Under the pieces are notes generated by a model. It was not told where the DNA came from and made no database searches. It worked only from the letters and a program-made list of their open reading frames with translations. Position numbers and translations under genes: made by a program. Positions 8,799 through 64,000 of a stretch of DNA of 64,000 nt are shown in pieces. The DNA is from Dehalococcoidia bacterium. GTDB taxonomy: Bacteria; Chloroflexota; Dehalococcoidia; GIF9; UBA5629. Position 1 is the first letter of the stretch. Each line of letters starts with the position of its first letter. The stretch lies in the NCBI GenBank assembly GCA_034435835.1, contig DAOTWF010000017.1, positions 145,113 through 209,112 on the forward strand, read 5' to 3'.

Positions 8799-8804
8799 AG
8801 GTTC

Positions 8805-9023: not shown

Positions 9024-9183
9024 TGTACACTCCTTTACGATGTCTCGGTGATTACAGAGTAGCACGATTCAGCAGTGATGTCAAAAAATGCAATTTTTTC
9101 TGCCCAAGCCTCTTGACATATAGTGCTTTTTTTGTCACATTAGCTGCGGTAAAATATAACGATTATGGAGGCGATGGAGGGAT

Positions 9184-10020: not shown

Positions 10021-10048
10021 ACCATTCCCGCTTTCAGGAGTGTATGCT

Positions 10049-12502
<2,454 letters not shown>

Positions 12503-12514
12503 CCCACCCTGGCG

Positions 12515-13123: not shown

Positions 13124-13219
13124 AGCCTCTCCCGATATTCGGGCGGTTCGAAGTGATAAGATGGTTGGTCTATAATATTAGGGGCTATCGTTATGCGCAA
13201 GACTGCCAGGAGGGAGAAA

Positions 13220-13666
13220 ATGGTCGAGCTCAGGAGCGACTGGACAGAGATTGTGGTCACCATGCACCGGGAGATGGGGCGGCTGCTGGACGATTTTTCC
13301 AGCCGCAAGCCACCTGCAGTAAGGTTTTCCCCGAGGACATGGGCGCCGGCAGTAGACGTCTTTGAGACCGCTGATGAGGTGGTGGCTCTATTCGAGCTTG
13401 CCGGCGTAAAAGAGGGGCAGATAGAGGTGGAGGTGTACGGGAAAGAGCTTATCGTCAGGGGAGAGCGGCAGGACGTAAAGCAGGGGATCAGTCGGAGCTA
13501 CACGCAGATGGAGATACTCTGGGGACCCTTTGAGCGCAGGGTGACCCTGCCGGCGGCGGTCGAGGTGGAGAAGACAAAGGCATTTTATGAGAACGGTTTT
13601 CTGGAAGTTGTCCTGCCCAAGGTGAAGGTCGAGGTGCAGCGGCGGGTGCAGATAAAGGGCAAGTAG
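13220..13666 (+). CDS. Hsp20/alpha-crystallin family small heat shock protein
   Basis: ATG at 13220 follows AGGAGGG. Alpha-crystallin domain (WAPAVDVFETADEVVALFELAGV...FERRVTLP). Confidence 0.85.
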   Translation: MVELRSDWTEIVVTMHREMGRLLDDFSSRKPPAVRFSPRTWAPAVDVFETADEVVALFELAGVKEGQIEVEVYGKELIVRGERQDVKQGISRSYTQMEILWGPFERRVTLPAAVEVEKTKAFYENGFLEVVLPKVKVEVQRRVQIKGK

Positions 13667-13686
13667 TATTCTTGTGAGGAAAAGAT

Positions 13687-16047
13687 ATGGAGGTCAGAGA
13701 GGAAGCTAAAGGGACCAAGGAGAAGTTCCGTATACCTGAGGAGATGCCCGTTTTCCCCAGCGGTCAGACGGTGGTGTACCCGGCCATAATCATTCCGCTG
13801 GGCACTGCCGAGGAGAAGCTGGTCAGGCTCATAGACGAGGCAGCCAGCAGGGACAAATTCGTCGGCTTTTTCGCACAGCGTCCCGGCTCTGGTGACTTAC
13901 CACTGCCTGAGAGCCTGTATTCTGTGGGTACGGTAGCCGTAATTGCCCGCATGTTCAAATTGCCCGATGGCTCCATCAGGGCTTTCTTTCAGGGGATATC
14001 TCGCGCCAGGATAAAAGAGATAACCCAAGTGGAGCCATATTTGAAAGCGAAGATTGAGGTGCTTGAGGATAAGGTGGAGCGGACCACAGAGCTGGAGGCG
14101 CTGACGAAGAACTTGCTCAGCCTTTTTCAGAGGGCTGTGGAGCTGGCGCCAAACCTGCCGGCTGAGCTCAGCATAGCTACCCTCAATATCCCAGAGCCGG
14201 GCACACTGGCTGACTTCGTCGCCGCTCACATCAGCCTCAAGCCCGAGGAAGCACAGGAGATACTGGAGACGCTGGACGTCAGCGAGCGCATAAAGAAGCT
14301 GACCGCTTACCTTAACCGCGAGCTCGAGGTGCTGGAGCTGGGCAGCAAGATCCAGTCCCAGGTGAAGCAGGAGATGGATAAGGCGCAGCGGGAATATTTC
14401 CTCCGGGAGCAGTTGAAGGCGATCCAGAAGGAGCTCGGCGAGCTTGATGAGCGGACGATGGAGATAAATGAACTGAAGGCGAAGATAGCCGAGGCGAATA
14501 TGCCCCCGGAAGCGCAGAAGGAGGCGGAGCGCGAGCTTGACCGGCTGGCGAAGATGCCGCCAGCCGCTGCCGAGTACACCGTATCACGCACCTATCTCGA
14601 CTGGCTCATCAGCCTTCCCTGGTCCAAGAGCACCGAGGACAACCTCGATATTGCTAAAGCCGCCCAGGTCCTGGATGAAGATCATTACGACCTGGAGAAG
14701 GTGAAGGAGAGGATCCTGGACTATCTGGCGGTGCGGAAGCTGAAGCCAGATATGAAGGGACCGATACTATGTTTTGTGGGACCGCCGGGCACGGGCAAGA
14801 CCTCTGTGGGGCAGTCCATTGCCCGGGCTTTGGGGAGAAAGTTTGTGCGCATGTCGCTGGGCGGTATCCGCGATGAGGCAGACATACGTGGCCACCGGCG
14901 CACTTATGTCGGTGCCCTGCCAGGGAGGATTATTCAGGGCTTGCGCCGCGCCGAGTCCAATAACCCGGTATTCATGCTAGATGAGATAGACAAGGTGGGT
15001 GCCGATTTTCGGGGCGACCCCTCAGCCGCCCTGCTGGAGGTCCTCGACCCCGAGCAGAATTATGCTTTCGTGGACCATTATCTCGACGTGCCCTTTGACC
15101 TTTCTAAGGTCATGTTTATCACCACGGCGAATATCACCGATACCATCCCTCCGGCGCTGCGCGACCGTATGGAGGTTCTGGAGCTTCCCGGATATACCGA
15201 GCAGGAAAAACTCCAGATTGCCAAGAAATACCTCGTCCCCAGACAGCTAAAGGAGAACGGCCTCAGCCCCGAAAAGCTGGAGATAAGTGATGACGCTATT
15301 CTGGCGATCATCCGCAATTATACCCGGGAAGCCGGGGTGCGGAATCTAGAGCGAGAGATTGGGGCGATCTGCAGGAAGATCGCCCGACGCATGGCTGAGG
15401 GCTTTGATGGGCGGATGGCGGTGACGCCTGAGAGACTGCAGGAATTTCTCGGGGTGAGAAAGTTCCTTCACGAAGTGGCTGAAAGGGAGGACGAGGTAGG
15501 TGTGGCTACCGGGCTGGCATGGACGCCCGTGGGCGGCGATGTCATCTTCGTAGAAGCCGCACTGGTGCCGGGCAGGGGTAACCTTATCCTGACGGGGAAG
15601 CTGGGCGATGTCATGCAGGAGTCGGCAAAGGCGGCGCTTACTTATGCCCGCTCCAGAGCCAGTGCCCTGTGCATACCTGAGGACTTCTATGAAAAGAAGG
15701 ATGTCCATATCCATGTGCCTGCTGGGGCTATCCCCAAGGATGGGCCTTCGGCAGGGATCACCATGGCGGTGGCTCTGGTCTCAGCCCTCACCGGTAAGCC
15801 TGTGAACCGGGAGATCGCCATGACCGGCGAGATTACCCTCAGGGGTAAGGTGTTACCCGTAGGTGGCATAAAGGAAAAGGTGCTGGCAGCACATCGGGCT
15901 GGCATCAGGAAGGTGGTGCTGCCGAAGGAGAATGAGAAGGACCTTGAGGAGGTGCCTGGGCAGATCAAACAGGAGCTGAGCTTTATTTTCGCTGAAGACA
16001 TCGACAACGCATTGGCAGTAGCCTTGAAAGACGGGAGGACAGCCTAA
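13687..16047 (+). CDS. lon: ATP-dependent Lon protease
   Basis: 786 aa. LON N-domain, AAA+ Walker [10 protein letters not shown], proteolytic Ser-Lys dyad region (PKDGPSAG). Confidence 0.95.
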
Positions 16048-31211: not shown

Positions 31212-34200
31212 TTAGCGCCTGCCAGCCAGAGCTAGCCCGACCTTGTTCACCAGGTCGGCGGCGCTGAACGGTTTGACAAGGGAAGGAAGCTTGTTTTCGG
31301 AGAGGAACCTTTCGGTCTCAGGGCTGACGACATCACCGGTGACGAACACCACCCTGGGCGCCAGCGACCGGGCTATCCGCCGGAGGCGCTGGTAGAGATG
31401 GATGCCACTCATCCCGGGCATTTTGATGTCGATAAGGATGAGGTGGTACCTCTGTTTCTGAATCTTCTCCAGGGCTTCCTCGGCTTTGGCTGCTGCGTCC
31501 ACCTCGCAGCCCTGCTCGCCGAGCGCCGTGGTCACAAACTGTCTGATGACCGGCTCATCGTCCACCACCAGTATCTTGACACCGGCCAGCTCCGCCTTCA
31601 GCTCAATGGGCAACTGTACGGGCTGTGGCGCCTCAGTGACCACAGGCAGTTCCACTATAAAGGTGGCGCCCCTGCCCGGCTTGCTTTGGGCATATATCCT
31701 GCCGTTGTGTTCGGTGACGATGCCGTAGCACAGGCTCAAGCCCAAACCCGTGCCCTCGCCCGCAGGTCTGGTGGTGAAGAAGGGGTCGAATATCCTGTCC
31801 ATTACCTCCGGCTTTATCCCGGGACCGTTGTCCCTGACCTTTATCTCGATGATGCCGCCCCTCTTTCTGGTGGTGATGGTCAGCTTCCCCTTGCGGCGCA
31901 CCTCCTTCAGTGCCTGCTCGGCGTTGATGATCAGGTTGAGCAGGACCTGCTGTATCTGTCCGGGGTCAGCTACGGTATCGGGAAGGCGAGGGTCAAGCCT
32001 GGCGGTGACCTCTATATTGTTTGTCCTCAGGCTGTAAGCCCGCAGGGCGAGGGTGCTCTCGATAAGCTGGTTGATGTTCACCGCCCGGCGTTCCAGCTTG
32101 GTCTGGCGGGAGAAGGCAAGCAGCCGCTGTACGATGCCAGCCACCCGCTGGGCGCCGTCGTTAATCACCTTCAGGTCGCGTCTGACATCTTCCGGCAGGT
32201 CCTGGCGGCTTAGCAAAAGCTGGGCGTAGCCCACCACGCCGGTGAGCGGGTTGTTTATCTCGTGGGCAACGCCGGCAGCCATCTCGCCCACCGAAGCCAG
32301 CCTGCTAGCCATCTGGGCTCTGAGCTCTAGCAGTCTTCTCTGCTCCTCAACCTTTTTGCGCTCGGTGACGTCCCGGGCAACGCCGCGGAAGCCAACTATC
32401 TCGCTCTTCTCGTTGCGCAGCGGCAGGATGGTCCGCTCGATAAAGATTCTCCTCCCGTTCTTGGTGATGGCGGTTCCTGGGAACCACCTCACCGGCTCAC
32501 CGGTGCGGTACACCCTGTTAAATGTCTGGAAATTGGCGTCCCATTCCTCCTTGGGCAGAAACTGACGGTAGTTCATGCCGCACAGTTCCTCTCTGGAATA
32601 GCCGAGGGCGCGCACTATGGCGTCGCCGCAGAAGGTCATATTGCCACGGAGGTCAGTCTCAAAGTACCCTTCATCCGCCTCCTCGAGCACGGTGCGGTAT
32701 CTCTCCTCAGACCTCCTCAGCGCCTCCTCCATTTGCTTGCGTTCTGTAATATCTGTGTCCAGCACCAGAGCCGCGGGCTTGTCCTCCCAGGTGACGGTGG
32801 TAGCATGCCTGTCCAGCCACCTTGTGTTTCCCTGTTTGTCTATGATCCTGAATTCGTATCTGGTAGGGGCGGGCTCGCCGCGCAGCCTTCGCTCGTGGTA
32901 GCCTATCACCCTGTCGCGGTCATCGGGGTGGATAAGGTTTTGCGCTGGCATGGCGTTCAGTTCCTCTACGGTATAGCCAGATATCTCGCGCACCTTGGTA
33001 TTGGCGAACTTGATTATGCCGTCCTGCACGACTGAGATGGCTTCGTTGGCGTTCTCCACCAGGGTGCGGTACCTCTCCTCCGAAAGCTTCAGCGCCTCCT
33101 CAGCCTTCTTGCGCTCGGTGATGTCCAAAGTCACCTCGATCAGTTCCACCACCTTACCGCTGGCGTCCTTAACCGGGTAGCCCCTGATGAGCCAGCGCCT
33201 GCCGTCAGGCGTAGCTATTTCGCCCTCCTGAGGTTCGCCCGTATCCCTTGCCTTTGCCACCGGGCAGCCTGTGCAGGGCTGGCTTGACTGGTGCCATATC
33301 TGGTGGCAGTAGTGCCCTACAAGTTCTTCGGGGGTGAGGTTCACCGACTGGGCAGCAGCCCGGTTTACCCATAGGATGCGGTGCCGCAGGTCCTGACGGA
33401 CGACGAGCTCTGACATGGTGCTGAGGATGATGGACTTCTCCCGCTCGCTCGCCTTCAGCGCCTCCTCCATCTTCTTCCGTTCGGTGATATCGCGGATGTT
33501 GCACTGGAAGAGCTTGCGGTTGCCCACCTCGTATTCGCTGGAGACGAATTCTGCATCCACCCTGCGCCCGTCCTTGGCTCGCAGCAGCAGGTGTTCATAG
33601 CGGACATACCCCTTTTTCTTTAACTCCTCGAAGGCAGCCTTGCTTTTATCGACGTCCTCGAAAAAGCCCAGTTCCCAGAGGCGTTTTCCCTGTAGCTCCT
33701 CGCGGCTGTAGCCCAGCCGGTACATGATGGACGGGTTGGCATCGATTATCTCGCCGCTGTCGCCCTCGAGGATGAGTATGCCGTCCAGGGATGACTCAAA
33801 GAGGCGGCGGTAACGGGCTTCAGAGTCCTGAAGCGCCCTTTCCAGCTTTTTGCGCTCGGTGATATCGATGATGGTTGACCTGACCGCAGGCCTGCCATCG
33901 TACTCCATGATGCTTACATGAGCTTCCACCCATCTCACCCTACCATCTTTACGAATGCCGCAGTATTCATAGCTTGTGGGCACATTCTCGCCAGCGAGCC
34001 GTTGCCGGAAATATCCCCAGACCTTCTCCCGGTCATCGGGGTGCACACTTGCCTTCACTTGTTCGGGCGTCAGCGAATAGAGTTCTTCTTGACTGTATCC
34101 TGTCATTTCGCAATACTTGGGGTTGGCGTAGACGATTCGGGGACCTTCGACTACCACCACAACACCGACCTGTCCCTGCTCAGTAAGGGCCCGGTACCTT

Positions 34201-34922
34201 TCCTCGCTCTGCCGCAGCTCGGTCTGCATCTGGCGTTCCCGCTCCAGGTTGTTGAGCCAGTGCTGCACTTCTACCTCAGCCAGCTTGCCGCCGAGGTAGT
34301 CCTCGGGCGGCACATAATAGAAGTTGTGGTATACGCGGCTGCCCTTGATGAGCAGGGGGTGGGTCATCACCACACCTTTAAGTATCTCGGGATCGAATTT
34401 CCAGCGGTCGTACTGGCAGATGGCGAGGGCAGGATACCCGGGGCAGAAGTCCTTATTTAGCTTTGCTTCGTATTCCAGGAGCCTCTCCGAGCCCGGAAGG
34501 TTACGCAGCACCCAGGTCATCTCGCCGGTGATGCGGACTGCGGGGTAGCCCTGAGAAAGGGCTTTTTCAGTTTCCTCGATGAGAAAGGCTATCATCCTGT
34601 CGGGGTCGAAATAGCCTTCCCTGGTGTAAGCTCTGCTCTCGTGGAGGATGGAGAGCTGTCCCGACCTTTCCACCGCCGCCACGTCTACACCCCCTTCCTT
34701 AAGGTGGCTGCGGACATCATTGGCGGTGCTGGTATCGACGATGTAGATGCACTTCTCGCCGCGCTTGAGTCCGATGGCGATGAAGGGCACCACAACAGCT
34801 ATCCGTTCCTGCGGCGACTCGTAGATGAGGCAGAGATGGTCGTGAGGTTTCAGCCCCTCGAGCATCTGCCTGAGGGTCATCTCCCCCGGCTGGATGCCAT
34901 AACCTGCACCACCCATACCCAT
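31212..34922 (-). CDS. hybrid sensor histidine kinase: N-terminal MEDS domain, about 7 PAS domains, HisKA, HATPase_c and a C-terminal receiver
   Basis: 1236 aa. MEDS-like N-terminus (HLCLIYESPQERIAVVVPFI). Repeated PAS cores (ITERKK linkers). H-box HEINNPLTGVVGYAQLL. G-box GTGLGLSL. C-terminal ILVVDDEPVIR...D receiver. Confidence 0.88.
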   Translation of the reverse strand: MGMGGAGYGIQPGEMTLRQMLEGLKPHDHLCLIYESPQERIAVVVPFIAIGLKRGEKCIYIVDTSTANDVRSHLKEGGVDVAAVERSGQLSILHESRAYTREGYFDPDRMIAFLIEETEKALSQGYPAVRITGEMTWVLRNLPGSERLLEYEAKLNKDFCPGYPALAICQYDRWKFDPEILKGVVMTHPLLIKGSRVYHNFYYVPPEDYLGGKLAEVEVQHWLNNLERERQMQTELRQSEERYRALTEQGQVGVVVVVEGPRIVYANPKYCEMTGYSQEELYSLTPEQVKASVHPDDREKVWGYFRQRLAGENVPTSYEYCGIRKDGRVRWVEAHVSIMEYDGRPAVRSTIIDITERKKLERALQDSEARYRRLFESSLDGILILEGDSGEIIDANPSIMYRLGYSREELQGKRLWELGFFEDVDKSKAAFEELKKKGYVRYEHLLLRAKDGRRVDAEFVSSEYEVGNRKLFQCNIRDITERKKMEEALKASEREKSIILSTMSELVVRQDLRHRILWVNRAAAQSVNLTPEELVGHYCHQIWHQSSQPCTGCPVAKARDTGEPQEGEIATPDGRRWLIRGYPVKDASGKVVELIEVTLDITERKKAEEALKLSEERYRTLVENANEAISVVQDGIIKFANTKVREISGYTVEELNAMPAQNLIHPDDRDRVIGYHERRLRGEPAPTRYEFRIIDKQGNTRWLDRHATTVTWEDKPAALVLDTDITERKQMEEALRRSEERYRTVLEEADEGYFETDLRGNMTFCGDAIVRALGYSREELCGMNYRQFLPKEEWDANFQTFNRVYRTGEPVRWFPGTAITKNGRRIFIERTILPLRNEKSEIVGFRGVARDVTERKKVEEQRRLLELRAQMASRLASVGEMAAGVAHEINNPLTGVVGYAQLLLSRQDLPEDVRRDLKVINDGAQRVAGIVQRLLAFSRQTKLERRAVNINQLIESTLALRAYSLRTNNIEVTARLDPRLPDTVADPGQIQQVLLNLIINAEQALKEVRRKGKLTITTRKRGGIIEIKVRDNGPGIKPEVMDRIFDPFFTTRPAGEGTGLGLSLCYGIVTEHNGRIYAQSKPGRGATFIVELPVVTEAPQPVQLPIELKAELAGVKILVVDDEPVIRQFVTTALGEQGCEVDAAAKAEEALEKIQKQRYHLILIDIKMPGMSGIHLYQRLRRIARSLAPRVVFVTGDVVSPETERFLSENKLPSLVKPFSAADLVNKVGLALAGRR

Positions 34923-54433: not shown

Positions 54434-54730
54434 GTGTCCCTCCCTTTTTTGGTTATTCTACCCACTGGCCGCCCTGTGAATGGGATCGCAGAGCGGCAAA
54501 GCAGTGGTGAGTTGCCCTCGGCTGAAATTATACATGGTAGACTTGCGATGGTTCACCCCGCCGCAGATAGGGCTGTGGCGGCATTTTGTCCCGAAAATGT
54601 GCCAGAGGTATCCCCTCCTCCAGCGCCGGCTGATGATTGCCTTGCTGCGGCGTGGCATCACAGTCAGCGAAGGTAGATGTTCGTCAGAAGAAGGGGTGCT
54701 GGACCGGGGGGTTGGTTACTGCCTGTGGTG

Positions 54731-55096
54731 ATGCTGCTGGCTGCTTTTCTGGTGCTGGCGTTATGTGCTAACGTTTGCCAGACAGCCGCCAGGGCTTACC
54801 ATTACCAACCGGTAGATGTCGACATCAGAGCCCTGGAGAACTTGGACTTACTGGTAACCGGGAAACTGGCGTTTGCCTTCACTTCCGGCGATTTCCATTA
54901 CTACTACCGCTGGACACCGACGGACAGGCTGGAATCGATCGAGGATGCAGGGGTGTGGCAAGGTGACTGGAAGTATGAACTCAATCCGGAGGTGAGGCAC
55001 TGGATAGGCATCAGGCGGGAGAAGGGTGGCTCACCGGGAGGGGACGACTATGCCTATGCTATTTGGAGGCAAGGAGGCCAGTTCTGGGTCGCCTGA
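54731..55096 (+). CDS. hypothetical small membrane-anchored protein
   Basis: N-terminal TM (MLLAAFLVLALCANV) followed by an aromatic-rich domain. The track ORF starts at 54677. Confidence 0.35.
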   Translation: MLLAAFLVLALCANVCQTAARAYHYQPVDVDIRALENLDLLVTGKLAFAFTSGDFHYYYRWTPTDRLESIEDAGVWQGDWKYELNPEVRHWIGIRREKGGSPGGDDYAYAIWRQGGQFWVA

Positions 55097-55590
55097 TGGT
55101 TCCCGAGGGCGGAGGGCGCTACCCGCACCATCGAGCTCAGGTACCGGGCGCATGGTACCCTGCGCATCGGTACTATCGCCGACCAGCTGGTCATATCTAC
55201 TTACAGCGTGCCCGCTGTCAGGCGGATGGTGGACGATTCCACCAGAATTTACCACCGGCAGGGTAGAGCCCGAGGAGGAACTGGAAATCAGAATCTCCTT
55301 TCCCCAAGGCATAGTCAGCGGTCGCCACCATCGTGGCAGGCGAGGCTGGAGAGGCAAGAGGCATACAACACAAAAGTCAAACCGGCAGTAAACCTAGCTC
55401 TAACGCTGTTTGGCTTAATTTTCGTGCCGCTGATGGGTGCCATGTTTATCAGGCTGCTGCCACGAAGTAATATTGTCCGCGTTTTATGATACTTGGGCAC
55501 AGCTGGTTCCGAATCAAACCGCCGTTTTATGGCTATTGAGCATAGGGCAAGGCTTTGTTAAAATGGGCTCTGACTGGGGGCAGTTACGCC

Positions 55591-56568
55591 ATGAAGCGAC
55601 CGACCAAGGGACACAAAACAGCAGCACGCAGCCTGTTAGCCGGTCTGGGAAAGACGCTGATATTCTTCTTCATCATTGCGATTGCAGTGCTGATGGTTAC
55701 TTCGGTTTGCATGTTTATCTCCATCGCTATAGAAGGTTGGGCATTGGCCGCTATATTGGCTTTCGGGGCTGTTTTTCTTGTGTTCTGTCTTCAAGCTTTT
55801 GCTCGCCGCAGACTGACCTTTACAAGGTTCTTTCTGGTGTCCTTTTTCTCAGTAATTTTCATAATGCTGGCGTCTGCTTATCTGGATATTAGGACGCTCA
55901 GCGATGTAAAGAACCATGTATCTGCCGCTTTTTCACAGCCTAAAGGACAGTTTCGTGAGAACATAGACCTCCTTGTGCAGAGAGCAGACCTTAAAGTAGA
56001 AGCAAATAACACTGCTGACAAGTCGACATCGGCTTCGACAACAGATGGCAAGACGACCGCCAAGAAGCAGGCAGACGAAAAGCATGTGTATTTGGACGGA
56101 GGCGTACTGGTGGGGGCGGATGGACATCGTATCACCTTAAAGAATAACCCGCAAGCCTCAGACCCATCATGGGAGCAACTGAAGACCTTTCTTCGTCAGG
56201 ATGACACAGATCGGATACCCTATGATTTCAATAAGTTCGTATGTGCTGACTTCGCTGAGAGGCTGCACAACAATGCCGAAATTGCTGGCATCAGGGCTGC
56301 GTATGTCTGCGTTAAGCTGGGACCAAGCAGCTACTATCCTAGATCTGGTGGTCACGCTTTGAACGCCTTCCAGACGACCGACCGAGGATTGGTGTATATT
56401 GATTGCACTGGCTTCGAGCCCGGCATCAGTGCAGATAGTGCAGATAAAATAGTGGATGTAGTGGTGGGGCAGGAATATGTGCCGAGAAGTATTTTCCCAC
56501 AGCCGGGGTGGTCTTTGGTTTGGTTAAGTATGGGAAAGGTCATTGAGATCGAGCTGATTGAATGGTGA
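55591..56568 (+). CDS. hypothetical membrane protein with 4 N-terminal TM helices and a C-terminal extracytoplasmic domain; lies in a low-GC island
   Basis: ATG at 55591 (MKRPTKGHK...); a TTG at 55555 is an alternative start. Local GC about 45% versus about 60% in the flanks. The C-domain has spaced Cys...His...Asp residues (FVCADF, GGHALNAF, YIDCTGFEP). Confidence 0.5.
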   Translation: MKRPTKGHKTAARSLLAGLGKTLIFFFIIAIAVLMVTSVCMFISIAIEGWALAAILAFGAVFLVFCLQAFARRRLTFTRFFLVSFFSVIFIMLASAYLDIRTLSDVKNHVSAAFSQPKGQFRENIDLLVQRADLKVEANNTADKSTSASTTDGKTTAKKQADEKHVYLDGGVLVGADGHRITLKNNPQASDPSWEQLKTFLRQDDTDRIPYDFNKFVCADFAERLHNNAEIAGIRAAYVCVKLGPSSYYPRSGGHALNAFQTTDRGLVYIDCTGFEPGISADSADKIVDVVVGQEYVPRSIFPQPGWSLVWLSMGKVIEIELIEW

Positions 56569-56722: not shown

Positions 56723-58009
56723 TTATGGCTGGCAGGATCGAGCTCTAAAGGTCAGGGTAAGGACGTTGGCGATCCTGATTTCGTCGCCGTCTTTGAGCGG
56801 CTGTTTGCCCTCGCCCCTGAGATCGGAGCCGTTAAGTTCAGTGCCGTTGGTGCTGCCGGAGTCCTCGATGTAGTAGCTGCCACCTTCACAGTAAAGTCGG
56901 ATGTGTTCTCTGGAGATCATGGCTGCCTTTTCCGCATCCACCAGGGAGCGGAAGTCCTTCCTCCCCAGAACGCCGCCGTTTGCTGGCAGGGACACCTCTT
57001 TGCCGTCCGGGGCAACGAGTCCGGGACCAGAGCCCAGGGTGGCGGTTCTGGTGCCGCTGGACTCGCCCGCCGACCGTGTGCTGGCGGTGCAGGAGAGGGT
57101 GCCCAGACGCGTGCCGGCGGTGTCTGCGGCATAAGCCAGGGCGGGCTTTCTGGTGACGAAGACGATCGCCGCCACGGTGGCGGCAGCCATCAGCGCAGCC
57201 AGGAGGACATAGAGTAGCCTGGGGCTGAAGCCATCGCCGAAGCTGAGGGGGAAGGTACTGTCCCCTCCCGTGCCGCTTGCGGCGCCGCTGCTGGTTTCCG
57301 GGGTAACGGTGGTGGTGGCAGCGGGGGTGGCGACGGTGATCGTGGTGCTGGCGGTCACTGTGCCGTCCTCATTGGTGGCGGTGAGCGTGTAGGTGGTGGT
57401 GGAGGTGGGGCTCACCACGTATGAGCCGGAGGCGGGGACGGAGCCGATTTCGGGCGATATGGTGACGGTGACACTCCTTTCAAGGACATCGCTCACTGTC
57501 CAGATCAGGGTGGCTGTCTCGCCGGGCTTTATGTAGCTGGGGCTGGCGCTGAAGGCGTTGACCACCGGCGGAGGGTCGATTTGCTGCCGGGGTTGGGGCT
57601 GGGGTTGGGGCTGCGTTACCACGACCACGCTGGGGCGCACGCACACCGCCCAGGTGCATTCACAGGGCCAGGAGCACCTAGGGTAGCAGGGGCAGCAGGG
57701 CTCGCACCACCGACAGCAGTCATGTGGGGCGGGTGGTGGGGGTAAAGGCGGTGCAGGCGGTGCCGGTGGTGATGGCGGTGCAGGCGGGGAACCCGAAGTA
57801 CCGGCTGATGCCGAAGCTGATGCGGTGGCGGTCACCGTGACTGTGACCGTGGGGTCAGCCCCGGTGGCGTTGACGGTGACGGTAGCCGTGGCAGAGGAGT
57901 CAGCCTGCGCCGAATTGTCTTCGGCGTATACTGACGTGACCCCCAGTAACAGGGCAGAGCACATCAGGAGTGCTGCTGCCAGGGCAAGGAATGGTTTTTT
58001 GAAGCTCAT
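56723..58009 (-). CDS. single-pass membrane protein: signal peptide, Thr/Val-rich and Pro-rich linkers, a 10-Cys motif, one Ig/PKD-like repeat, TM, and a cytoplasmic C-terminal FHA domain
   Basis: 428 aa. N-terminal signal peptide. CCRWCEPCCPCYPRCSWPCECTWAVC. Ig-like repeat ...GETATLIWTV...TTTYTLTATNEDG. TM LLYVLLAALMAAATVAAIVFV. FHA core (ISREHIRLYCEGGSYYIEDSGSTNGTELNG). Confidence 0.8.
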   Translation of the reverse strand: MSFKKPFLALAAALLMCSALLLGVTSVYAEDNSAQADSSATATVTVNATGADPTVTVTVTATASASASAGTSGSPPAPPSPPAPPAPPLPPPPAPHDCCRWCEPCCPCYPRCSWPCECTWAVCVRPSVVVVTQPQPQPQPRQQIDPPPVVNAFSASPSYIKPGETATLIWTVSDVLERSVTVTISPEIGSVPASGSYVVSPTSTTTYTLTATNEDGTVTASTTITVATPAATTTVTPETSSGAASGTGGDSTFPLSFGDGFSPRLLYVLLAALMAAATVAAIVFVTRKPALAYAADTAGTRLGTLSCTASTRSAGESSGTRTATLGSGPGLVAPDGKEVSLPANGGVLGRKDFRSLVDAEKAAMISREHIRLYCEGGSYYIEDSGSTNGTELNGSDLRGEGKQPLKDGDEIRIANVLTLTFRARSCQP

Positions 58010-58111: not shown

Positions 58112-59701
58112 TTATTTCACCTCCGTGTTATTTTTATTTTCTTTCCTGAAAGCGATGCTCAGTTTGCCTGCCAGTTCGATTACATCGCCATCTGAAAGCG
58201 CATGCCTGCCGGTGCCTTTAATCTCTTTGTCGTTGAGCTTGGTGCCGTTGGTGCTGCTGCGGTCCTCGATGTAGTACTGACCGTTTTCATACCAGATGTT
58301 GAAGTGCTGCCTTGATATGTAGATGGCGTTCTCCGGAAGCATGGAACTTTCGAAGTCATGCCGGCCAAAGGATCTGGCGTTGCCAGCCAGCAGTATTTCA
58401 CTGCCGTCGGGCAATACCAGCTTCGCCGGCGGGGCCTCCACCACGGGCGTGGTCGTTGGCAGTGTATTTGCGTACGGGGTCACGCCAGGCTGGGTGGTGC
58501 CTTCCCGTACGGCTGGCTCTGGCATATGACGGGTCTTCGCCGGTCTCCTCGCCATCACGGCGACGAGGACGATTATCGCCATCACCGCCAGTGCCAGCAG
58601 GGCAATAAGTCCCCAGAGCAGGTAGGGTGGCTGTTCCACGGTGATAGTTACCGACACGGACTGCGCGGTACCGTCAGCATAGGTGGCGGTGAGGGTATAG
58701 GTGGTGGTCTGCTGTGGTGCTACCTGCACTGTGCCGCTTGTCACTACGGTGCCCAAGCTGCTGATGGACACGTGTGTAGCCCCGGGGGCACTCCAGGAGA
58801 GAGTTGCTGTCTTCCCCTTCTTTATCACGGTCTGGTCGGTGCTGAAGATGGGTGGTGTTCTGGGTTTGACCGTTATGGTCAAGGACGATGACGCTGTCTT
58901 GTCCGATTTACCTTTCGCCATCAGCGTGTAGGTAGTGGTGGTGGTGGGGGTGACCGAGGTGGAGCCGGAGGCGGCGACCGTCCCGATGTCCGGAGATATG
59001 GTGACGCTGCTGGCATTGGTGGTGGTCCAGGTGAGCGTCACTGTTTCCCCTGCCTCGATGGAGGTCTTGCTGGCAGTGAAGGAGTTTATCACCGGCGGTT
59101 TGACCTGCTCCGATGGTGGGGCGGGTATGTCAGGCGGGTAGTAGCCAGCGGTGTAGTTGAAGCTCAGCGAGCGAGTTGACCAGACTCCGCCGGAGAGGAA
59201 CCACATCCTCCACACATACCTGCCAGGCGGGTCGAAGGGCTCGGCAACGAAGGGCCCGAGCTGCCAGACGCCGGCACGTGGGATATACCAGCGGTAGCAG
59301 AGCCAGTGTCCGTAAGGCACGGTGCCTACGGGGTAGTACTCCCAGAGGTAGAAATAGCCCGCTCCGCTGACTGATACGATAAGGTAACAAGCCCAGTTGC
59401 GGTAGAGGTTGGTCAAAATCTGTCCGTAGCTGTTTACCAGGCAGGCGCCCACTATCGAGCCCGGGGCAGTTCCCGGTGCCACCTCGGGCGGCGAAATCTG
59501 CAGCGAGGGCCATGTCTGACCGTACACCTCTACCCTTACCGGGGGCTCCATTGACTCCTGCCCCCCATAAGGCGGCTGCCATGGCTCGGTGGGGTTCGGT
59601 GGCGGGAAGGGATAGTCCTGCGCTGCGGCGGGAAATACTATGCCCGGGGCAGTCAGAGAAGCCAGGACGACTATCAGAAAGACCGAGAGTAACCCTTTCA
59701 T
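58112..59701 (-). CDS. single-pass membrane protein: signal peptide, Trp/Tyr-rich module, two Ig/PKD-like repeats, TM, and a cytoplasmic C-terminal FHA domain
   Basis: 529 aa. Signal peptide. W/Y-rich block (YLWEYYPVGT...GVWQLGPF...RMWFLSGGVW). Two repeats ending TTTYTL(M/T)A. TM LLWGLIALLALAVMAIIVLVAV. FHA core (ISRQHFNIWYENGQYYIEDRSSTNGTKLN). Confidence 0.8.
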   Translation of the reverse strand: MKGLLSVFLIVVLASLTAPGIVFPAAAQDYPFPPPNPTEPWQPPYGGQESMEPPVRVEVYGQTWPSLQISPPEVAPGTAPGSIVGACLVNSYGQILTNLYRNWACYLIVSVSGAGYFYLWEYYPVGTVPYGHWLCYRWYIPRAGVWQLGPFVAEPFDPPGRYVWRMWFLSGGVWSTRSLSFNYTAGYYPPDIPAPPSEQVKPPVINSFTASKTSIEAGETVTLTWTTTNASSVTISPDIGTVAASGSTSVTPTTTTTYTLMAKGKSDKTASSSLTITVKPRTPPIFSTDQTVIKKGKTATLSWSAPGATHVSISSLGTVVTSGTVQVAPQQTTTYTLTATYADGTAQSVSVTITVEQPPYLLWGLIALLALAVMAIIVLVAVMARRPAKTRHMPEPAVREGTTQPGVTPYANTLPTTTPVVEAPPAKLVLPDGSEILLAGNARSFGRHDFESSMLPENAIYISRQHFNIWYENGQYYIEDRSSTNGTKLNDKEIKGTGRHALSDGDVIELAGKLSIAFRKENKNNTEVK

Positions 59702-59865
59702 GTTTTTGACTTAACTCCCGAACATGACATTTTCTTGATTTAAATATACGCGCCTCGGGGGTGGGTTGCTTGACTGCGGGATGACAGACCGCTGACAGTT
59801 TTTTGACAAGACGGGGAATGGTGGAGGATGTTTCCGGGGGTCCTAAGGGGATGGGCAACAGGAGC

Positions 59866-60963
59866 TTAGAGTGTATAGAGCTTAAGCTGTATTCTACCGG
59901 CGAGCTCTATGAGGTCACCGTGGTTGAGGGCGACGGGACCTCTGCCGCGGATCTCCATGCCGTTCAGACTGGTGCCATTGGTGCTATCCAGATCTTCAAT
60001 ATAGAACTGCCCCTGCTGCGATTTGACCTCAAAATGTTGTCTCGACACCAGCGCCAGGTCGTTTATATCCAGCGCCCTGGCGAGGTCTTCCCTGCCGACC
60101 CTCCTGCCACCGCTGTCGAGTGGAATTTCCATACCGTTGGGCAGGGTTATCTTTGCCCTGACGGTGGTTGCCGGAAAAGAGGTCGGTACCTCTCGCAGCG
60201 CCGACGCAACAGATGGCTTTTTCCGCCTGGGGTGTGGGGCGTATATCCGGTACAGGTAAAAGCCAAGCAGGGCGAAAGCAATGGTGAGCAGGGCTGAGAA
60301 GCAGATTACCGCTGCCAGCGGCGATGCCACCAGTGTGCGCAACCGGTCGGTAAATTTACTTTCCGGCGGCGTAGCCGGCAGCGTCTGTCCGGTGGGCTTT
60401 TCGGTGCTCGCGGCTTTAACATAGGTCCAGTATACGAGTTTGTCATGAGGTGGGTCGGTGTCTCCGCCAGCCCAGTTGCCGTTGCTGTAGAACCATATTC
60501 TGTAGGCATGCTGTCCTTCCGGCTCGGCTGCGCCCGGGGTGAAAGGACCGAGCCTCCAGACTCCGCTTTCGGGCAGATGCCATTTGTATGCCAGCCATCT
60601 TCCCGGCTGCTCTGCGCCCTCGGGGAAGTGCTCGTAGATATAGAGCCAGCCCGGTGCATTGATGTCCACATCTAAATACCAGTTCTGGTCTCCGCTGACC
60701 CCGGCCCCGTTTTCCGCCGAAGGACCGATGAAGGCGGGGATGAAGTTGGGAGAGGCGTTATCCGACTGTGCTGAAGGTCCCAGCTGCACATACCGGACTG
60801 GCGGCTTGAGCTCATCGCCGGGCTGGTCTTCGGCGGGTGTCTCGGGCACGGTGGCGTTGTCCGTTGCTGGACCCACCGCCCACACATCTGCTGTCCCGGC
60901 GAACAGCACCCACAGGGCGGCGAAAAACAGAGCGCCGACAAAAAACAGTAATCTATACCTCAT
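59866..60963 (-). CDS. single-pass membrane protein: signal peptide, Trp/Tyr-rich module, TM, and a cytoplasmic C-terminal FHA domain
   Basis: 365 aa. W/Y-rich block (YIYEHFPEGA...GVWRLGPF...RIWFYSNGNW) homologous to the one in the 58112 protein. TM. FHA core (VSRQHFEVKSQQGQFYIEDLDSTNGTSLNG). Confidence 0.8.
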   Translation of the reverse strand: MRYRLLFFVGALFFAALWVLFAGTADVWAVGPATDNATVPETPAEDQPGDELKPPVRYVQLGPSAQSDNASPNFIPAFIGPSAENGAGVSGDQNWYLDVDINAPGWLYIYEHFPEGAEQPGRWLAYKWHLPESGVWRLGPFTPGAAEPEGQHAYRIWFYSNGNWAGGDTDPPHDKLVYWTYVKAASTEKPTGQTLPATPPESKFTDRLRTLVASPLAAVICFSALLTIAFALLGFYLYRIYAPHPRRKKPSVASALREVPTSFPATTVRAKITLPNGMEIPLDSGGRRVGREDLARALDINDLALVSRQHFEVKSQQGQFYIEDLDSTNGTSLNGMEIRGRGPVALNHGDLIELAGRIQLKLYTL

Positions 60964-61982
60964 TGTGCTTGCTGCACCTTAAGCTGTTTTATCAAATAGC
61001 CGCTTTCCGAGGCGAGCGCTGCCTGCATGGCGCGGGCATCGGCGAACCTATCGTCCGGGGAGAACATCACCGCCTGTGCCAGGCACCTTGCCACACGCTT
61101 TGATACGCCCAGGGAGATAAGGTGGTCGGCAAGGACGGCGGCTTCACTGAAGGAACGGGGCCAGTTGTATCTGAACAGTTTCAGGCAGATATCGTTGGGT
61201 TCATCAAGCGTAAGAAGATAGATGCAGGTCTGTGCCAGTCCGCAGAGGTCGCACCTGTGGTCGCTTTTCCTGCCGATGAACAGCTCCGGGATATCGAAGC
61301 CCTTGTTGGTTATCTGGGTGAACGAGTCATAGTATGTCTTGTCCTTATCAGGGTCAAGGTTCTTTGCCGTGCCGAAGTCGATGAGCTTCACCGTGCCATC
61401 GCTACAGAGCATGATGTTCTTGGGGTTAACGTCCCTGTGGACGATGCCGGCGGCGTGTATATAGGCGAGTGCGTCCAGTAGCTGGCACGCCCAGAGGACC
61501 ACCTGCTGCTCCTCGAGGGGCGACCGCGGTGACAGGGTGAGCAGTGGCTCCCCGTTCAGGTACTCGAGGACGAGGTGAAATTCGCCCTTGTGATAGAAGT
61601 CTTCTATATACCTGACGATGTTAGGGTGGTGCAGCCTCTTCAAATAGCTGGCTTCCAGCAGTAGCTTTTCCAGGTATACATTGTCCATGGTGGTGCCGCG
61701 GCGCGGTGTTTTGATGATGCAGGGCATGCCCTTCTTGCGTTCCAGGGCTCGCCAGATGGTCGCCATGCCGCCCTGTTTGAAAAGTGGCGTGATCAGTGCA
61801 TAGCGCCCGTTAACTATGTGAGCCTTGTCCGCTGAGGGGATGGGGGCGTGTGCCTGTTTCTGCTCGGGGCGAGGGCTTCCCTTATTGCGTTTTCGGAAGT
61901 AGACCAGCAGGGCGACGCATATCGCCAGGGCGCCGTATATCGAGACCATTGCAATGTCAGAAAAGTCCAGTGCCCACATCAT
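60960..61982 (-). CDS. Hanks-type Ser/Thr protein kinase with an N-terminal membrane anchor and no extracellular sensor domain
   Basis: 340 aa. N-terminal TM MVSIYGALAICVALLVYF followed by basic residues. Kinase motifs (VAIK-like IIKTP, HRDVNPKNIM, DFG). Stop/start overlap with the flanking genes. Confidence 0.88.
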   Translation of the reverse strand: MMWALDFSDIAMVSIYGALAICVALLVYFRKRNKGSPRPEQKQAHAPIPSADKAHIVNGRYALITPLFKQGGMATIWRALERKKGMPCIIKTPRRGTTMDNVYLEKLLLEASYLKRLHHPNIVRYIEDFYHKGEFHLVLEYLNGEPLLTLSPRSPLEEQQVVLWACQLLDALAYIHAAGIVHRDVNPKNIMLCSDGTVKLIDFGTAKNLDPDKDKTYYDSFTQITNKGFDIPELFIGRKSDHRCDLCGLAQTCIYLLTLDEPNDICLKLFRYNWPRSFSEAAVLADHLISLGVSKRVARCLAQAVMFSPDDRFADARAMQAALASESGYLIKQLKVQQAQ

Positions 61983-62782
61983 TTCCTCCCGATGGTGGTC
62001 TCAGCCGAGACTACAGCCTCCCATGAGGGCAGGTTGGCGGGCCTGGCTATTACCACCGATATATTGTCCGGTCCTCCCGCCAGGTTAGCCTGAGCAATGA
62101 GATCGGCACATGCCCGCCTGGGGTCGAGTGAACTCAGCACGGTCTCGGCTATCATTTCCGGGGGCAATATTCCGCAGAGACCATCAGAGCAGAGCAGGAT
62201 ATGGTCACCGGCGTAGAGTTTCAAGTGGTACAGGTCAGGGGCGGCATTTGAAGAATAGCCCAGGGCTCTGGTTATCTCATTGCGGCGGGGGTGATACCTC
62301 GCCTGTTCCTCGGTCAGCAGCCCGGCGTCCACCAGCTCCTGGACCATGGAATGGTCCTTGGTCACCTGGATGGTCTCGCGGCTATTGATGATATAGCAAC
62401 GGCAATCGCCGATGTGTGCCACGTACAGGTTATTTCCCAGCACCAGGGCTGCGGTGAGGGTGGTTCCCATACCGGCGAGCTCGCTGCGGCCGGCGGCGTT
62501 GAGCACGGCAGCACCCGCCCTGGAGCAGGCAGCGCTCAGGATGGAGAGCGGCGGTGCCGTGGGCTCGGTGAGCAGGCGCGAGATACACTCGGCGTGGAAT
62601 GTCCTCACGGCAAGGTCGCTGGCAACCTCTCCGGCATTATACCCGCCGATGCCGTCCGCCACAGCGAAGAGGCCGGCGGTGACAACTCCTGAATTTGTCT
62701 GGAGGTCAAACCTCATAGAGAGGACGCTGTCCTCGTTGAGGCTTCTCACCAGCCCTTTATCAGAACCATAGCCTATTTCCAA
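61979..62782 (-). CDS. PP2C-family Ser/Thr protein phosphatase
   Basis: 267 aa. Motifs FAVADGIGG and CSDGL, and a terminal GGPDNISVV. Confidence 0.9.
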   Translation of the reverse strand: MEIGYGSDKGLVRSLNEDSVLSMRFDLQTNSGVVTAGLFAVADGIGGYNAGEVASDLAVRTFHAECISRLLTEPTAPPLSILSAACSRAGAAVLNAAGRSELAGMGTTLTAALVLGNNLYVAHIGDCRCYIINSRETIQVTKDHSMVQELVDAGLLTEEQARYHPRRNEITRALGYSSNAAPDLYHLKLYAGDHILLCSDGLCGILPPEMIAETVLSSLDPRRACADLIAQANLAGGPDNISVVIARPANLPSWEAVVSAETTIGRK

Positions 62783-62784: not shown

Positions 62785-63405
62785 CTAACCACCCCCGTTT
62801 TCTGTCCCTTCCGTTTCCTTCTGCAGCCGGAAGGTCAGGGTGAGTTCCGGCTGCCCGGCGAGCTCGAGCTTATCGCCGTCCTTCAGCGGCTTTTTCTGCC
62901 CGTGTATATCAACGCCGTTCAACTTCGTATGGTTGGTGCTTCCCTTGCCTTCAGGACCGTAGTCCTGGACGTAGTGTCTGCCCCGGCTGCAGGTGATTAA
63001 CAGGTGCTGGCGTGAGACTGCCATCAGTGTCTCGTAGGGCAGTGCGTCGGCGAAATCAGCGCGCTCTATGAAGACAGGGTCGCCGCCGAGAACGAGCTCG
63101 GTGCCATTGGGCATTATCACCTTAGCCTTCGGCGGAGAATGGACTGTGCCCCGCCTGCCCCTGCCTTTGATTGCTATATCTGCGGTGGCGAAATACTTCC
63201 CGCAGGTATAGCAGAAGAACCTGGCGGCTTTATTCGGACTCTGACATCTGGGGCAGATGGTCTTATCTTCGGGGCTGATATCACCGGCTGTGGGGACAGA
63301 GCGCCGGTACCTGGTGGAGACCGTTTCGTCGCGGTCGCCCTTCACGCTGTGGGCTTGAGGTGGTAGTTTGGGACTTTTTTCCTTCACCATCATGATTACC
63401 AGCAC
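62785..63405 (-). CDS. FHA-domain protein with an N-terminal zinc-ribbon
   Basis: 206 aa. CPRCQ...CYTCG zinc ribbon. C-terminal FHA (VSRQHLLITCSRGRHYVQDYG...STNHTKLNG). Confidence 0.8.
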   Translation of the reverse strand: MLVIMMVKEKSPKLPPQAHSVKGDRDETVSTRYRRSVPTAGDISPEDKTICPRCQSPNKAARFFCYTCGKYFATADIAIKGRGRRGTVHSPPKAKVIMPNGTELVLGGDPVFIERADFADALPYETLMAVSRQHLLITCSRGRHYVQDYGPEGKGSTNHTKLNGVDIHGQKKPLKDGDKLELAGQPELTLTFRLQKETEGTENGGG

Positions 63406-63553
63406 TCTTTTACCAAAAGTCTAGCCTGCGGGCAGCGCCATTGCTTGACAGTTATCTGACAAACACCTAATATGGCTATGACAACTCCGCTGACGTAAAC
63501 ATTATACTACTATTAAGAAACGAAAATAGACCCGTCAAAGTTGGAGGCTGTCT

Positions 63554-64000
63554 TTGGCGTACGTAATCGTCAGGAAGGGCAATGCCGAGGATGTCGGCAA
63601 AATCTTCATCTTAAGCAGGCCGCTCACTCTGGTGGGACGCCGTACTCCGCAGAGCCAGCCCGATGTTGAACTCACCGATGAAGTCATCTCCCGGCGGCAC
63701 CTAGAGATTATACTCAAGGACGGCAAATACTGGGTGCGTGACCTGGGCAGCACCAATGGCACGATGCTGGGCGACGACAGGATAGTCCCCGGCAACCTGT
63801 ATGAACTCAAACACAACAGCAAGATAGGGCTGGGGGTTGAGGGCGCTTCAGCGCGCACTGTGCTCGTCTTCAAAGAGACCGAGGACACCGGCATAATCGC
63901 GGGCAAAAGGTCGCTGGCAGCTGAGCCCGCCGTGGCGCCGCAGGTGGCGTGGCTTAAGATAGACGAGGCAAAGAAAGAGGTGCTGGTGGACGGCAAGCCG
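63554..64000 (+). CDS. FHA-domain protein, N-terminal part (runs off the 3' edge of the window)
   Basis: TTG start 5 nt after GGAGG. Begins MAYVIVRKGNAEDVGKIFILSRPLTLVGR. FHA core ISRRHLEIILKDGKYWVRDLGSTNGTMLG. Divergent from the upstream FHA/PP2C/kinase operon. Confidence 0.7.
   Translation, partial: MAYVIVRKGNAEDVGKIFILSRPLTLVGRRTPQSQPDVELTDEVISRRHLEIILKDGKYWVRDLGSTNGTMLGDDRIVPGNLYELKHNSKIGLGVEGASARTVLVFKETEDTGIIAGKRSLAAEPAVAPQVAWLKIDEAKKEVLVDGKP

Follow-up and report, generated by a model that had tools for sequence, protein, structure and literature searches.

The aromatic-rich block common to two FHA membrane proteins of this locus represents a genuine domain family of ~140 residues that had not been annotated before. 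Its reality as a domain, predicted fold class, membrane topology, distribution, synteny, and the strong constraint on its sequence are regarded as established. The module is always N-terminal, forming the head of type I membrane proteins with a single TM pass, and is in sequence farthest from the membrane anchor. Its likeliest role is that of an extracytoplasmic sensing, interaction or docking head feeding phosphothreonine signalling. An uncatalogued extracellular domain family thereby gains a signature, a confident predicted fold, and a bacterial and archaeal distribution, and is tied to a strongly conserved, uncharacterised Ser/Thr-phosphorylation cluster of Dehalococcoidia. Dehalococcoidia are abundant and have few cultured members, and their signalling and envelope biology is poorly known.

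Proteins A and B and Their Shared Block

The two proteins, here called A (58112-59701, minus strand) and B (59866-60963, minus strand), are encoded in the window, which is the whole 64-kb stretch of DNA analysed. Both ORFs are as the initial annotation gave them. It had proposed that A and B share an aromatic-rich block, and BLASTP bears this out, aligning residues 49-175 of A with residues 50-165 of B at 33% identity (E = 1e-21). The C-terminal FHA match between the two proteins is separate (E = 3e-25). The local BLOSUM62 score between A and B is 206, against 34.6 +/- 6.9 (maximum 67) for 2000 shuffles of B. This corresponds to z of ~25, and therefore the similarity does not come from composition. 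W, Y and F account for 21 of 80 core residues in A and 16 of 80 in B. In a tblastn search of the window, copies of the block were found only in A and B, and not in protein C, the third FHA membrane protein. The motif string proposed at first is essentially right, but its beginning, Y.WE, should read Y..E (B has YIYE), and three gaps were one residue too long. The A/B alignment gives P.G....G.WL, LGPF......P.G, and G....R.WF.

The order of signal peptide, block and single transmembrane (TM) helix is true of both A and B. Reading of the sequences indicated type I single-pass topology in A, B and most family members, with a hydrophobic N-terminus, a site resembling AxA, and one TM helix further along. 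Positively charged residues lie C-terminal of the TM helix in A and B (RR and RRKK). The RR...K after the TM helix of A places its C-terminus in the cytoplasm. A, B and C all match the FHA family (Table 1), and the FHA loops FGRHD/VGRED, SRQH, and STNGT are seen in the A/B alignment.

Table 1. Features of the A/B locus, with positions in the window.
Feature	Position	Strand	Basis
Protein C, third FHA-tailed single-pass membrane protein	56723..58009	-	Sequence; Pfam FHA E = 3.4e-13; synteny
Cytoplasmic FHA domain of A, residues 431-529	58115..58411	-	Pfam PF00498 E = 2.3e-14; GR, SRQH, and NG phosphothreonine-binding motifs from sequence
Single TM helix of A, residues 360-386	58544..58624	-	Sequence; alignment to TM helix of B
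Two Ig-like stalk repeats of A, residues 200-358	58628..59104	-	Repeat read from sequence; weak sub-threshold Ig-type Pfam matches
Module copy of A, residues 51-192	59126..59551	-	BLASTP to B; HMM envelope 51-192; AlphaFold; column frequencies
Mature N-terminal segment of A, residues 28-50, with acidic-W-x-P-P motif (EPWQPPY)	59552..59620	-	Alignments
Signal peptide of A, residues 1-27, ending PAAA/QDY	59621..59701	-	Sequence reading; hydrophobic N-terminus in all family members
Cytoplasmic FHA domain of B, residues 271-365	59869..60153	-	Pfam PF00498 E = 4.2e-15
Single TM helix of B, about residues 213-240	60244..60327	-	Sequence; alignment to A
Module copy of B, residues 52-190	60394..60810	-	BLASTP; HMM; column frequencies; AlphaFold
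Signal peptide of B, residues 1-29, ending VWA/VG	60877..60963	-	Sequence
Hanks-type Ser/Thr kinase	60960..61982	-	Pfam PF00069 E = 2.9e-33; conserved position in ~40 loci
PP2C phosphatase	61979..62782	-	Pfam PF00481 E = 5.6e-17; synteny
Soluble zinc-ribbon-FHA protein, first gene of the operon	62785..63405	-	Pfam FHA E = 1.2e-8; sub-threshold double zinc ribbon (DZR) match; synteny
FHA-winged-helix (Trans_reg_C) regulator, 5' part, divergent, cut by the window end	63530..64000	+	Translation matches the L006 ortholog; orthologs are FHA + Trans_reg_C

The acidic-W-x-P-P motif of A also precedes the module in archaeal and other single-copy members, and residues 28-50 of A show a mean identity of 55% among 41 orthologs; the structure models start after this segment. 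In B, the signal peptide is followed by TDNAT, a conserved sequon-like motif, and the pattern [ST][DE]N.[ST] is present in 40 of 42 B orthologs. The module of B contains an acidic strand, YLDVDIN. The ectodomain of protein C consists of a Pro-rich spacer, a Cys-rich knot, and an Ig-like repeat, and lacks the module. The stalk-repeat region of A is also common to protein C.

Relation to Known Domains and Predicted Fold

No Pfam-A match to the modules of A and B was obtained even at E <= 1. Among ~18 family members, no Pfam-A or NCBIfam match covered the module region. Every significant or cutoff-reaching hit in these proteins starts after residue ~180, and hits inside the module region are at chance level (E >= 0.029, far below cutoff). 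PDB sequence profiles returned nothing for the module, and CBM families gave no HMM hit on it. The view that the block is no recognised named domain agrees with the Pfam-A, NCBIfam and PDB profile searches.

AlphaFold models of the module are all-beta, with nine strands and no helices (pLDDT 90.6 and pTM 0.82 for A; pLDDT 81 and pTM 0.76 for B). They form a two-sheet sandwich and fall within the 7-9 strands of the Ig-like/E-set class. The top Foldseek matches are all Ig-like sandwiches with probability ~1.0, at TM scores of 0.5 or less and E-values of 1.5e-3 or worse. These matches are generic, and include CARDB, MG, RbmA, TapA, RhoGDI, Wzt-C, and transglutaminase C-terminal domains. No structural relative with both Foldseek E < 1e-3 and TM > 0.5 was found in PDB. 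The beta module expected from the block thus has a confident predicted fold in AlphaFold and Foldseek. The models identify the module as an Ig-like (E-set type) beta-sandwich, a known fold in a new family. Judged from the model and column frequencies, most of the conserved aromatics occupy alternating in-strand positions, typical of core residues.

It is highly improbable that the module is a divergent copy of a known Ig-like repeat, such as CARDB, DUF11 or DUF7507, with no distinct identity. The module HMM matches DUF7507 repeat proteins with a summed E-value of 4.5e-32, and CARDB (3idu) is among the top Foldseek matches of the B model, but the Pfam searches at E <= 1 argue against such an origin. 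Homology to DUF7507 was rejected, as 10 near-identical repeats at ~12 bits each inflate the total and the hhalign probability is 2% (32 columns). The CARDB stalk domains of family members were also rejected as homologs (hhalign probability 0.05%). CARDB/DUF11/DUF7507 and E-set sandwiches (3idu, the RhoGDI Ig domain, macroglobulin MG, RbmA, and TapA) likewise belong to the two-sheet beta-sandwich class and are extracellular on prokaryotic surface proteins, and archaeal members carry the module directly on CARDB stalk domains. In contrast to these sandwiches, the module is longer, single-copy and N-terminal, and has its own signature, with no HMM match and hhalign probabilities of 2% or less.

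Distribution of the Family

Searched with the profile, 1.84 billion protein representatives yielded 89 hits at E <= 1e-3. About 75 of them have a single copy of the module at residues ~50-190, directly after the signal peptide. Multi-stretch profile hits (Ig_3, WWE, PKD, and FG-GAP proteins; E of 1e-6 to 1e-3) were left out, as they are short W/G-motif matches in stretches of 19-50 residues. The genomes of 185,579 species were scanned with an alignment of 11 sequences. Its search pattern is biased towards A-like and archaeal-type copies, so that B-like ones came to light only by synteny. The scan revealed 48 loci, in 46 Dehalococcoidia/Chloroflexota MAGs and two archaea. One further member was found in Thermofilum. 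A word-indexed protein search gave only ~12 short fragments, and the distribution therefore rests on the exhaustive HMM scan and the genome scan.

The module signature is YEYYPxGxxPxGHW ... GxWxxGPFxPExxEPEGxHxW, and the module is always single-copy and N-terminal. FHA is carried by 33 of 62 members. In one clade within Dehalococcoidia, a single TM helix joins the module to an FHA domain in the cytoplasm. In the members without FHA, it is placed on a CARDB, Big_3_5, filamin or MG2 stalk followed by a C-terminal TM helix. Since the module is found on varied stalks as well as on FHA proteins, it is considered a portable head. The initial annotation had named two outcomes that would speak against it: a match to a domain of known function, or confinement of the block to the two paralogs with no predicted fold. 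Neither was observed, as no named domain matched and the block, with its confident predicted fold, extends to the ~75 single-copy members and the 48 genome loci. Literature on FHA with Dehalococcoidia or Chloroflexi, and on single-pass FHA receptors, yielded nothing on the module or the cluster.

Conservation and the Two Histidines

The best-conserved segment of both proteins among orthologs is the module core. Identity in protein A is 71% in the module core, compared with 65% in FHA and 39% in the linker. In protein B, it is 60% in the module core, compared with 50% in FHA and ~20% in the linkers. Two histidine positions distinguish the copies. All A-like forms (100%) and 87% of the single-copy ones have the GHW histidine, and B-like forms never do (0%). 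The G-x-H position is a histidine in every B-like form (100%) and in 84% of the single-copy ones, and is Y in 98% of A-like forms. The module of A is thus of an H-Y type, with the second histidine replaced by Tyr, and that of B is of an R-H type, with the GHW histidine replaced by Arg. A and B thus reciprocally lost one of two ancestral histidines each. A distant cluster (L054) repeats the split into A-type and B-type, and has an additional paralog that retains both histidines. The reciprocal loss offers a concrete, mutable hypothesis for a putative binding site.

Conserved Gene Cluster

About 40 species-level genomes of Dehalococcoidia share one gene order: FHA-wHTH, DZR-FHA, PP2C, STK, B, A, C. 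A and B are ancient duplicates in this seven-gene cluster, in the order B then A, and almost every locus with sufficient flanking sequence has them as neighbours. By Pfam matches and motifs, adjacent active-looking STK, PP2C and FHA genes are conserved across the ~40 loci. The kinase carries the HRD and DFG motifs; it has one N-terminal TM helix and no ectodomain. In a more distant lineage, the cluster takes a variant form, in which three paralogs combine the module with FHA. No conserved neighbours were found at the archaeal loci and at locus L055.

Possible Roles of the Module

The genomic context, a conserved Hanks kinase/PP2C/FHA cluster, makes the suggested envelope or extracellular sensing role plausible. 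We consider it probable that the module is an Ig-like head on FHA-tailed receptors which sense extracellular input for this cluster. We infer ligand sensing and its coupling to the kinase, which would proceed as follows. The cluster kinase would have no sensor of its own, and the A and B heads would bind one another, or a ligand outside the cell or in the envelope. Head binding would alter the clustering or orientation of the FHA tails, which may dock on phosphothreonines of the kinase or of one another. Such docking would tune how far the FHA-wHTH regulator and the soluble FHA proteins are phosphorylated, and PP2C would reset the system. The cluster is a tractable case in which to ask how extracellular input reaches kinases without sensor domains.

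A possible, less favoured role is that of a protein-protein interaction head, in which the A and B modules either form an obligate heterodimer or pair with a protein of the S-layer or surface. Their function would be the assembly or positioning of the receptors with FHA tails, not the binding of a small ligand. The adjacency of A and B, the reciprocal loss of the ancestral histidines, and the recurrence of the A-type/B-type split in the L054 cluster beside the paralog with both histidines are in line with it, and dimerising Ig domains (p52/RelB and RbmA) are among the top fold matches. However, the histidine loss fits subfunctionalisation to two different ligands as well, and single-copy archaeal forms work without a partner paralog. 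A bolder version, still less probable than the two roles treated in the next paragraph, would make A and B two halves of an obligate heteromeric receptor. Each would contribute one histidine to a composite metal or ligand site formed only across the A-B interface, and together with C they would be sensor ectodomains acting in trans, through FHA-phosphothreonine docking, on a kinase without an ectodomain. If true, the heteromeric A/B receptor would parallel, in prokaryotes, the receptor-plus-associated-kinase design, using a surface domain common to Dehalococcoidia and Thermoproteota archaea.

Binding of glycans or cell-wall polymers, to which the aromatic richness had been taken to point, is unlikely. 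Exposed Trp/Tyr platforms would bind envelope or environmental polysaccharide in a CBM-like manner, and their occupancy would be relayed to the FHA tail. W, Y and F make up 20-26% of the core. Several predicted strands bear conserved aromatics on each face, accompanied by conserved Arg/Lys (W132, R/K136, K/R164, and W166 in A numbering), and some of the weak fold matches are to sandwiches associated with carbohydrates (Wzt-C, a GbpA domain, and the N-terminal domain of beta-GRP). Nevertheless, no CBM family matches in sequence, non-lectin Ig domains match the fold at least as well (TM 0.5 or less), and the alternating aromatics also fit core packing or a structural Trp-Arg ladder. With generic Ig-like matches and most of the conserved aromatics at core-type positions, the step from aromatic richness to glycan binding is unsupported. 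To our knowledge, Thermoproteota archaea have no peptidoglycan. No peptidoglycan genes were seen among the 10 large ORFs scanned, in a 64-kb window too small to inform on this. Against a cell-wall ligand in particular, murein is absent in archaea and in some orders of Dehalococcoidia, where part of the class lost peptidoglycan synthesis (PMC10284905), which may not be the state of the window organism. It is similarly doubtful that the module is the tip of a surface scaffold or adhesin with no signalling input, capping Ig-like stalks as in the archaeal proteins, with FHA only as a tether to a cytoplasmic partner that is phosphorylated. This description fits about half of the family: these proteins have no FHA, a CARDB, Big_3_5 or MG2 stalk with a C-terminal TM helix, and unrelated neighbours. 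But in A and B the module is conserved above the FHA domain, and its bacterial genes are closely linked to those for the kinase, PP2C and the regulator. Should the head turn out to be no more than a structural Ig-like cap, a new DUF-type annotation would be all that the finding offers in practice.

Comparison with Known Signalling Systems

Several characterized systems resemble the receptors in part. YscD/PrgH of T3SS likewise combine a cytoplasmic FHA, one TM helix and an extracytoplasmic beta-rich domain, and the PpkA-PppA-Fha1/TagH threonine-phosphorylation pathway of T6SS is likewise a kinase-phosphatase-FHA triad. However, the FHA of YscD is at the N-terminus, in the orientation opposite to A and B. 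The matches to Pfam Yop-YscD_cpl and TIGR03354 VI_FHA are sub-threshold, below curated cutoffs, and confined to the FHA domain, and no secretion-system genes were found near the cluster. The divergent gene of the cluster, FHA + Trans_reg_C, recalls EmbR-type regulators, which likewise combine FHA and a winged helix. EmbR of M. tuberculosis is controlled by PknH, and the FHA-wHTH regulator of the cluster follows the same logic. Unlike EmbR, this regulator, whose gene is partly within the window, has a different domain order and no BTAD.

Mycobacterial FhaB/FipA (Rv0019c) and FhaA, in the PknA/PknB-PstP cluster, are likewise membrane-associated FHA proteins beside a Hanks kinase and PP2C. Their FHA domains read phosphothreonines made by the kinase. 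FhaB_Rv0019c of NCBIfam (NF049868) is the best named match to the TM-FHA part of A, B and C, with scores of about 35-37 bits (34.6-36.4) against a 125-bit cutoff, and thus none of the three falls into this equivalog. We know of no folded ectodomain in FipA. Unlike in the FhaB/FipA system, FHA here is C-terminal to a type I ectodomain and the receptors are three paralogs, and unlike in the PknA/PknB-PstP cluster, the kinase carries neither PASTA nor another ectodomain.

Shared Module in Two FHA Membrane Proteins

The ORF check confirmed proteins A and B, two FHA-tailed single-pass membrane proteins, as described in the initial annotation, together with the aromatic-rich block common to both. 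BLASTP showed a match over the C-terminal TM-FHA part (E=3e-25) and a separate match over the block (A 49-175 against B 50-165, 33% identity, E=1e-21). The Trp/Tyr/Phe content per 80-residue core is 21 in A and 16 in B. The composition does not explain the match, since the local score is 206 against 34.6 +/- 6.9 in 2000 shuffles (maximum 67; z ~25). The motif string first proposed was mostly right, but one residue was wrong and three gaps were each one residue too long. The signature from 152 sequences is [YF]L-x4-N-x-PG-x-LYIYEYYP-x-G-x2-P-x-GHW[LI]-x-Y-x-W-x5-G-x-W-x2-GPF-x-PE-x2-EPEG-x-H-x-W[RK]-x-W.

By tblastn, the only block copies in the 64-kb window are those in A and B, and protein C, the third FHA membrane protein, lacks it. 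Residues ~75-125 of C comprise a Pro-rich spacer and, after it, a dense knot of Cys residues (DCCRWCEPCCPCYPRCSWPCECTWAVC). This knot is kept only in the closest relatives (loci L002, L006, L007, L008, L010, and L012), and Tyr-rich or other sequence takes its place in more distant orthologs. The head of C is thus variable, unlike the module of A and B.

Features of the window and archaeal members of the module family
Feature	Coordinates	Strand	Remarks
dnaA	2112-3467	-	
gyrA	10007-12502		
lon	13687-16047		
Hybrid histidine kinase	31212-34922	-	1236 aa
Downstream gene	54677-55096	+	no Pfam match
Downstream gene	55555-56568	+	no Pfam match
Protein C	56723-58009	-	
Protein A	58112-59701	-	529 aa ORF
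Protein B	59866-60963	-	365 aa ORF
Mature N-terminus of B	60780-60876	-	B residues ~30-60
Hanks kinase	60960-61982	-	HRD and DFG motifs intact
PP2C	61979-62782		
Zn-ribbon-FHA	62785-63405		
FHA plus winged-helix (Trans_reg_C) regulator	63530-64000+	+	divergently transcribed; start only, cut by window end
Archaeal member, L052	7770-9521		archaeal MAG
Archaeal member, L053	6833-8593		archaeal MAG
Archaeal member, P0062			Thermofilum sp.

A New Domain Family

The named-domain matches in A, B, and C (Pfam-A and NCBIfam) are to FHA only. The module submitted alone had no Pfam-A or NCBIfam match even at E<=1, and the PDB sequence-profile search with 2-sequence and 57-sequence alignments returned nothing at E<=10. 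These empty searches bear out the earlier reading that the block contains no recognised named domain. The search beyond the two paralogs, which the initial annotation had suggested, was run with a 13-sequence HMM profile against all 1.84 billion cluster representatives. At E<=1e-3 it matched 89 proteins, and 52 of these also passed E<=1e-10. Some 75 of the 89 have a single module copy at residues ~50-190, directly behind a hydrophobic signal sequence; the rest are giant repeat proteins.

A DUF7507 match with E=4.5e-32 is the sum over ten near-identical repeats of ~12 bits apiece, and its profile-profile probability is 2%. The corresponding probability against the CARDB domains of family members is 0.05%. 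The module is thus not a detectable member of DUF7507 or CARDB. Judged from sequence, it is a real, uncatalogued domain family, new in sequence and of a known fold class. Neither the module nor the gene cluster is described in the literature searched.

Distribution and Architecture

Among 185,579 species, each represented by one genome, the scan identified 48 loci. Forty-six belong to Dehalococcoidia/Chloroflexota MAGs and are 59-92% identical to the A module; the other two are archaeal (one Thermoproteota archaeon and one unclassified archaeon). The annotation of one cluster of divergent members is Thermofilum sp. The C-terminal FHA domain is present in 33 of 62 full-length members. The others carry the module on CARDB, Big_3_5, filamin, or MG2 stalks that lead to a TM helix at the C-terminus; zinc-ribbon tails occur in a few of these non-FHA members. 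These architectures indicate a portable N-terminal head of single-pass surface proteins.

Archaeal members are built from a signal peptide, the module, a CARDB-like stalk, and a TM helix at the C-terminus; they lack an FHA domain, and their neighbours include no signalling genes. The neighbours of the archaeal loci and of locus L055 are unrelated. An acidic-W-x-P-P motif precedes the module in the archaeal members and likewise in bacterial A-like proteins.

The A and B genes are broken into two or three ORFs in long-read MAG contigs L003, L004, L005, L050, and L051. These look like frameshift errors, not real truncations, and such splitting accounts for the short "hypothetical protein" fragments from the word-indexed protein search.

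Conserved Gene Cluster

The gene order in ~40 species-level genomes of Dehalococcoidia matches the window: divergent FHA-winged-helix regulator, Zn-ribbon-FHA, PP2C, Hanks kinase, B, A, and C. Orthologs of the regulator (~226 aa) hold the same position in related loci, which marks it as the probable transcriptional output of the cluster. One N-terminal TM helix anchors the Hanks kinase and leaves only ~9 residues outside. The kinase has no ectodomain and no sensor domain of its own, and its orthologs of ~320-345 aa follow the same pattern. L054, from a more distant lineage (Logan SRR23086390 contig, 1-10858), has a variant cluster of FHA-wHTH regulator, VWA protein, DZR-FHA, PP2C, and three consecutive module-TM-FHA paralogs, with the kinase downstream on the opposite strand. 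L021 and L047 have A and C, and the upstream genes are absent within 8 kb.

The cluster works like known Hanks kinase/PP2C/FHA modules such as mycobacterial PknA/B-PstP-FhaA/FipA, the T6SS PpkA-PppA-Fha1 pathway, and EmbR-type regulators. However, the NCBIfam FhaB score is 35 bits against the 125-bit cutoff and the VI_FHA score is 34-38 bits against 120, which places the system outside these known families by profile score.

Just downstream of the cluster are two genes convergent with it. One encodes a small (139-aa) secreted protein rich in aromatic residues, the other a 337-aa membrane protein.

Constraint and Reciprocal Histidine Loss

Among 41 A orthologs, mean identity is highest in the module core (71%), followed by FHA (65%), the Ig stalk (62%), and the cytoplasmic linker (39%). 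Among 40 B orthologs it is 60% in the core, 50% in FHA, 25% in TM, and ~20% in the linkers.

In the 152 sequences, single-copy and archaeal forms keep the GHW His in 87% and the EPEG-x-H His in 84%. A-like proteins (59126-59551 in the window) keep the GHW His in 100% and have Tyr at the second position in 98%. B-like proteins (60394-60810) have Arg/Lys/Gln at the GHW position (0% His) and keep the second His in 100%. The two ancestral histidines were lost reciprocally between A-like and B-like proteins. In L054, the first paralog has both His, the second is B-type, and the third is A-type. The reciprocal loss and the presence of the domain in both bacteria and archaea are the most intriguing aspects of the system. 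In the strand order of the secondary-structure string, both histidines are at strand starts and adjoin two conserved loops, YEYYPxG and PExxEPEG. This placement suggests that histidines and loops may form a single conserved pole.

At the mature N-terminus, [ST][DE]N-x-[ST] is conserved in 40 of 42 B-like orthologs (TDNAT here). The motif may represent an N-glycosylation-type sequon, or it may just belong to the fold.

Possible Function

A and B are type I membrane proteins whose extracytoplasmic Ig-like head is conserved and whose cytoplasmic FHA domains retain intact motifs for pThr binding. Their genes show conserved linkage to those for a sensor-less kinase, a PP2C phosphatase, and output proteins that contain FHA. 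In a rather probable mechanism, the A and B heads would bind a ligand or each other. Such binding would alter the engagement of the FHA tails with phosphothreonines of the kinase or of its substrates and tune phosphorylation of the FHA-wHTH regulator, with PP2C resetting the system.

A protein-protein or heterodimerising head, which overlaps this mechanism, is a tentative alternative. A glycan-binding module would fit the aromatic richness and the conserved Trp with Arg/Lys but shows no CBM similarity, and it is unlikely. Archaea lack peptidoglycan, as do those Dehalococcoidia orders that descend from a loss event (PMC10284905); the window organism may or may not have it. A purely structural adhesin tip is similarly doubtful, and a divergent CARDB or DUF11 repeat is very improbable.

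Other Features of the Window

The window start appears to be near the chromosomal replication origin. The region 789-16047 contains dnaA, gyrA, and lon, and the cumulative GC skew climbs from ~2 kb. The hybrid histidine kinase has a MEDS domain at its N-terminus along with multiple PAS domains, HisKA/HATPase, and a receiver domain.
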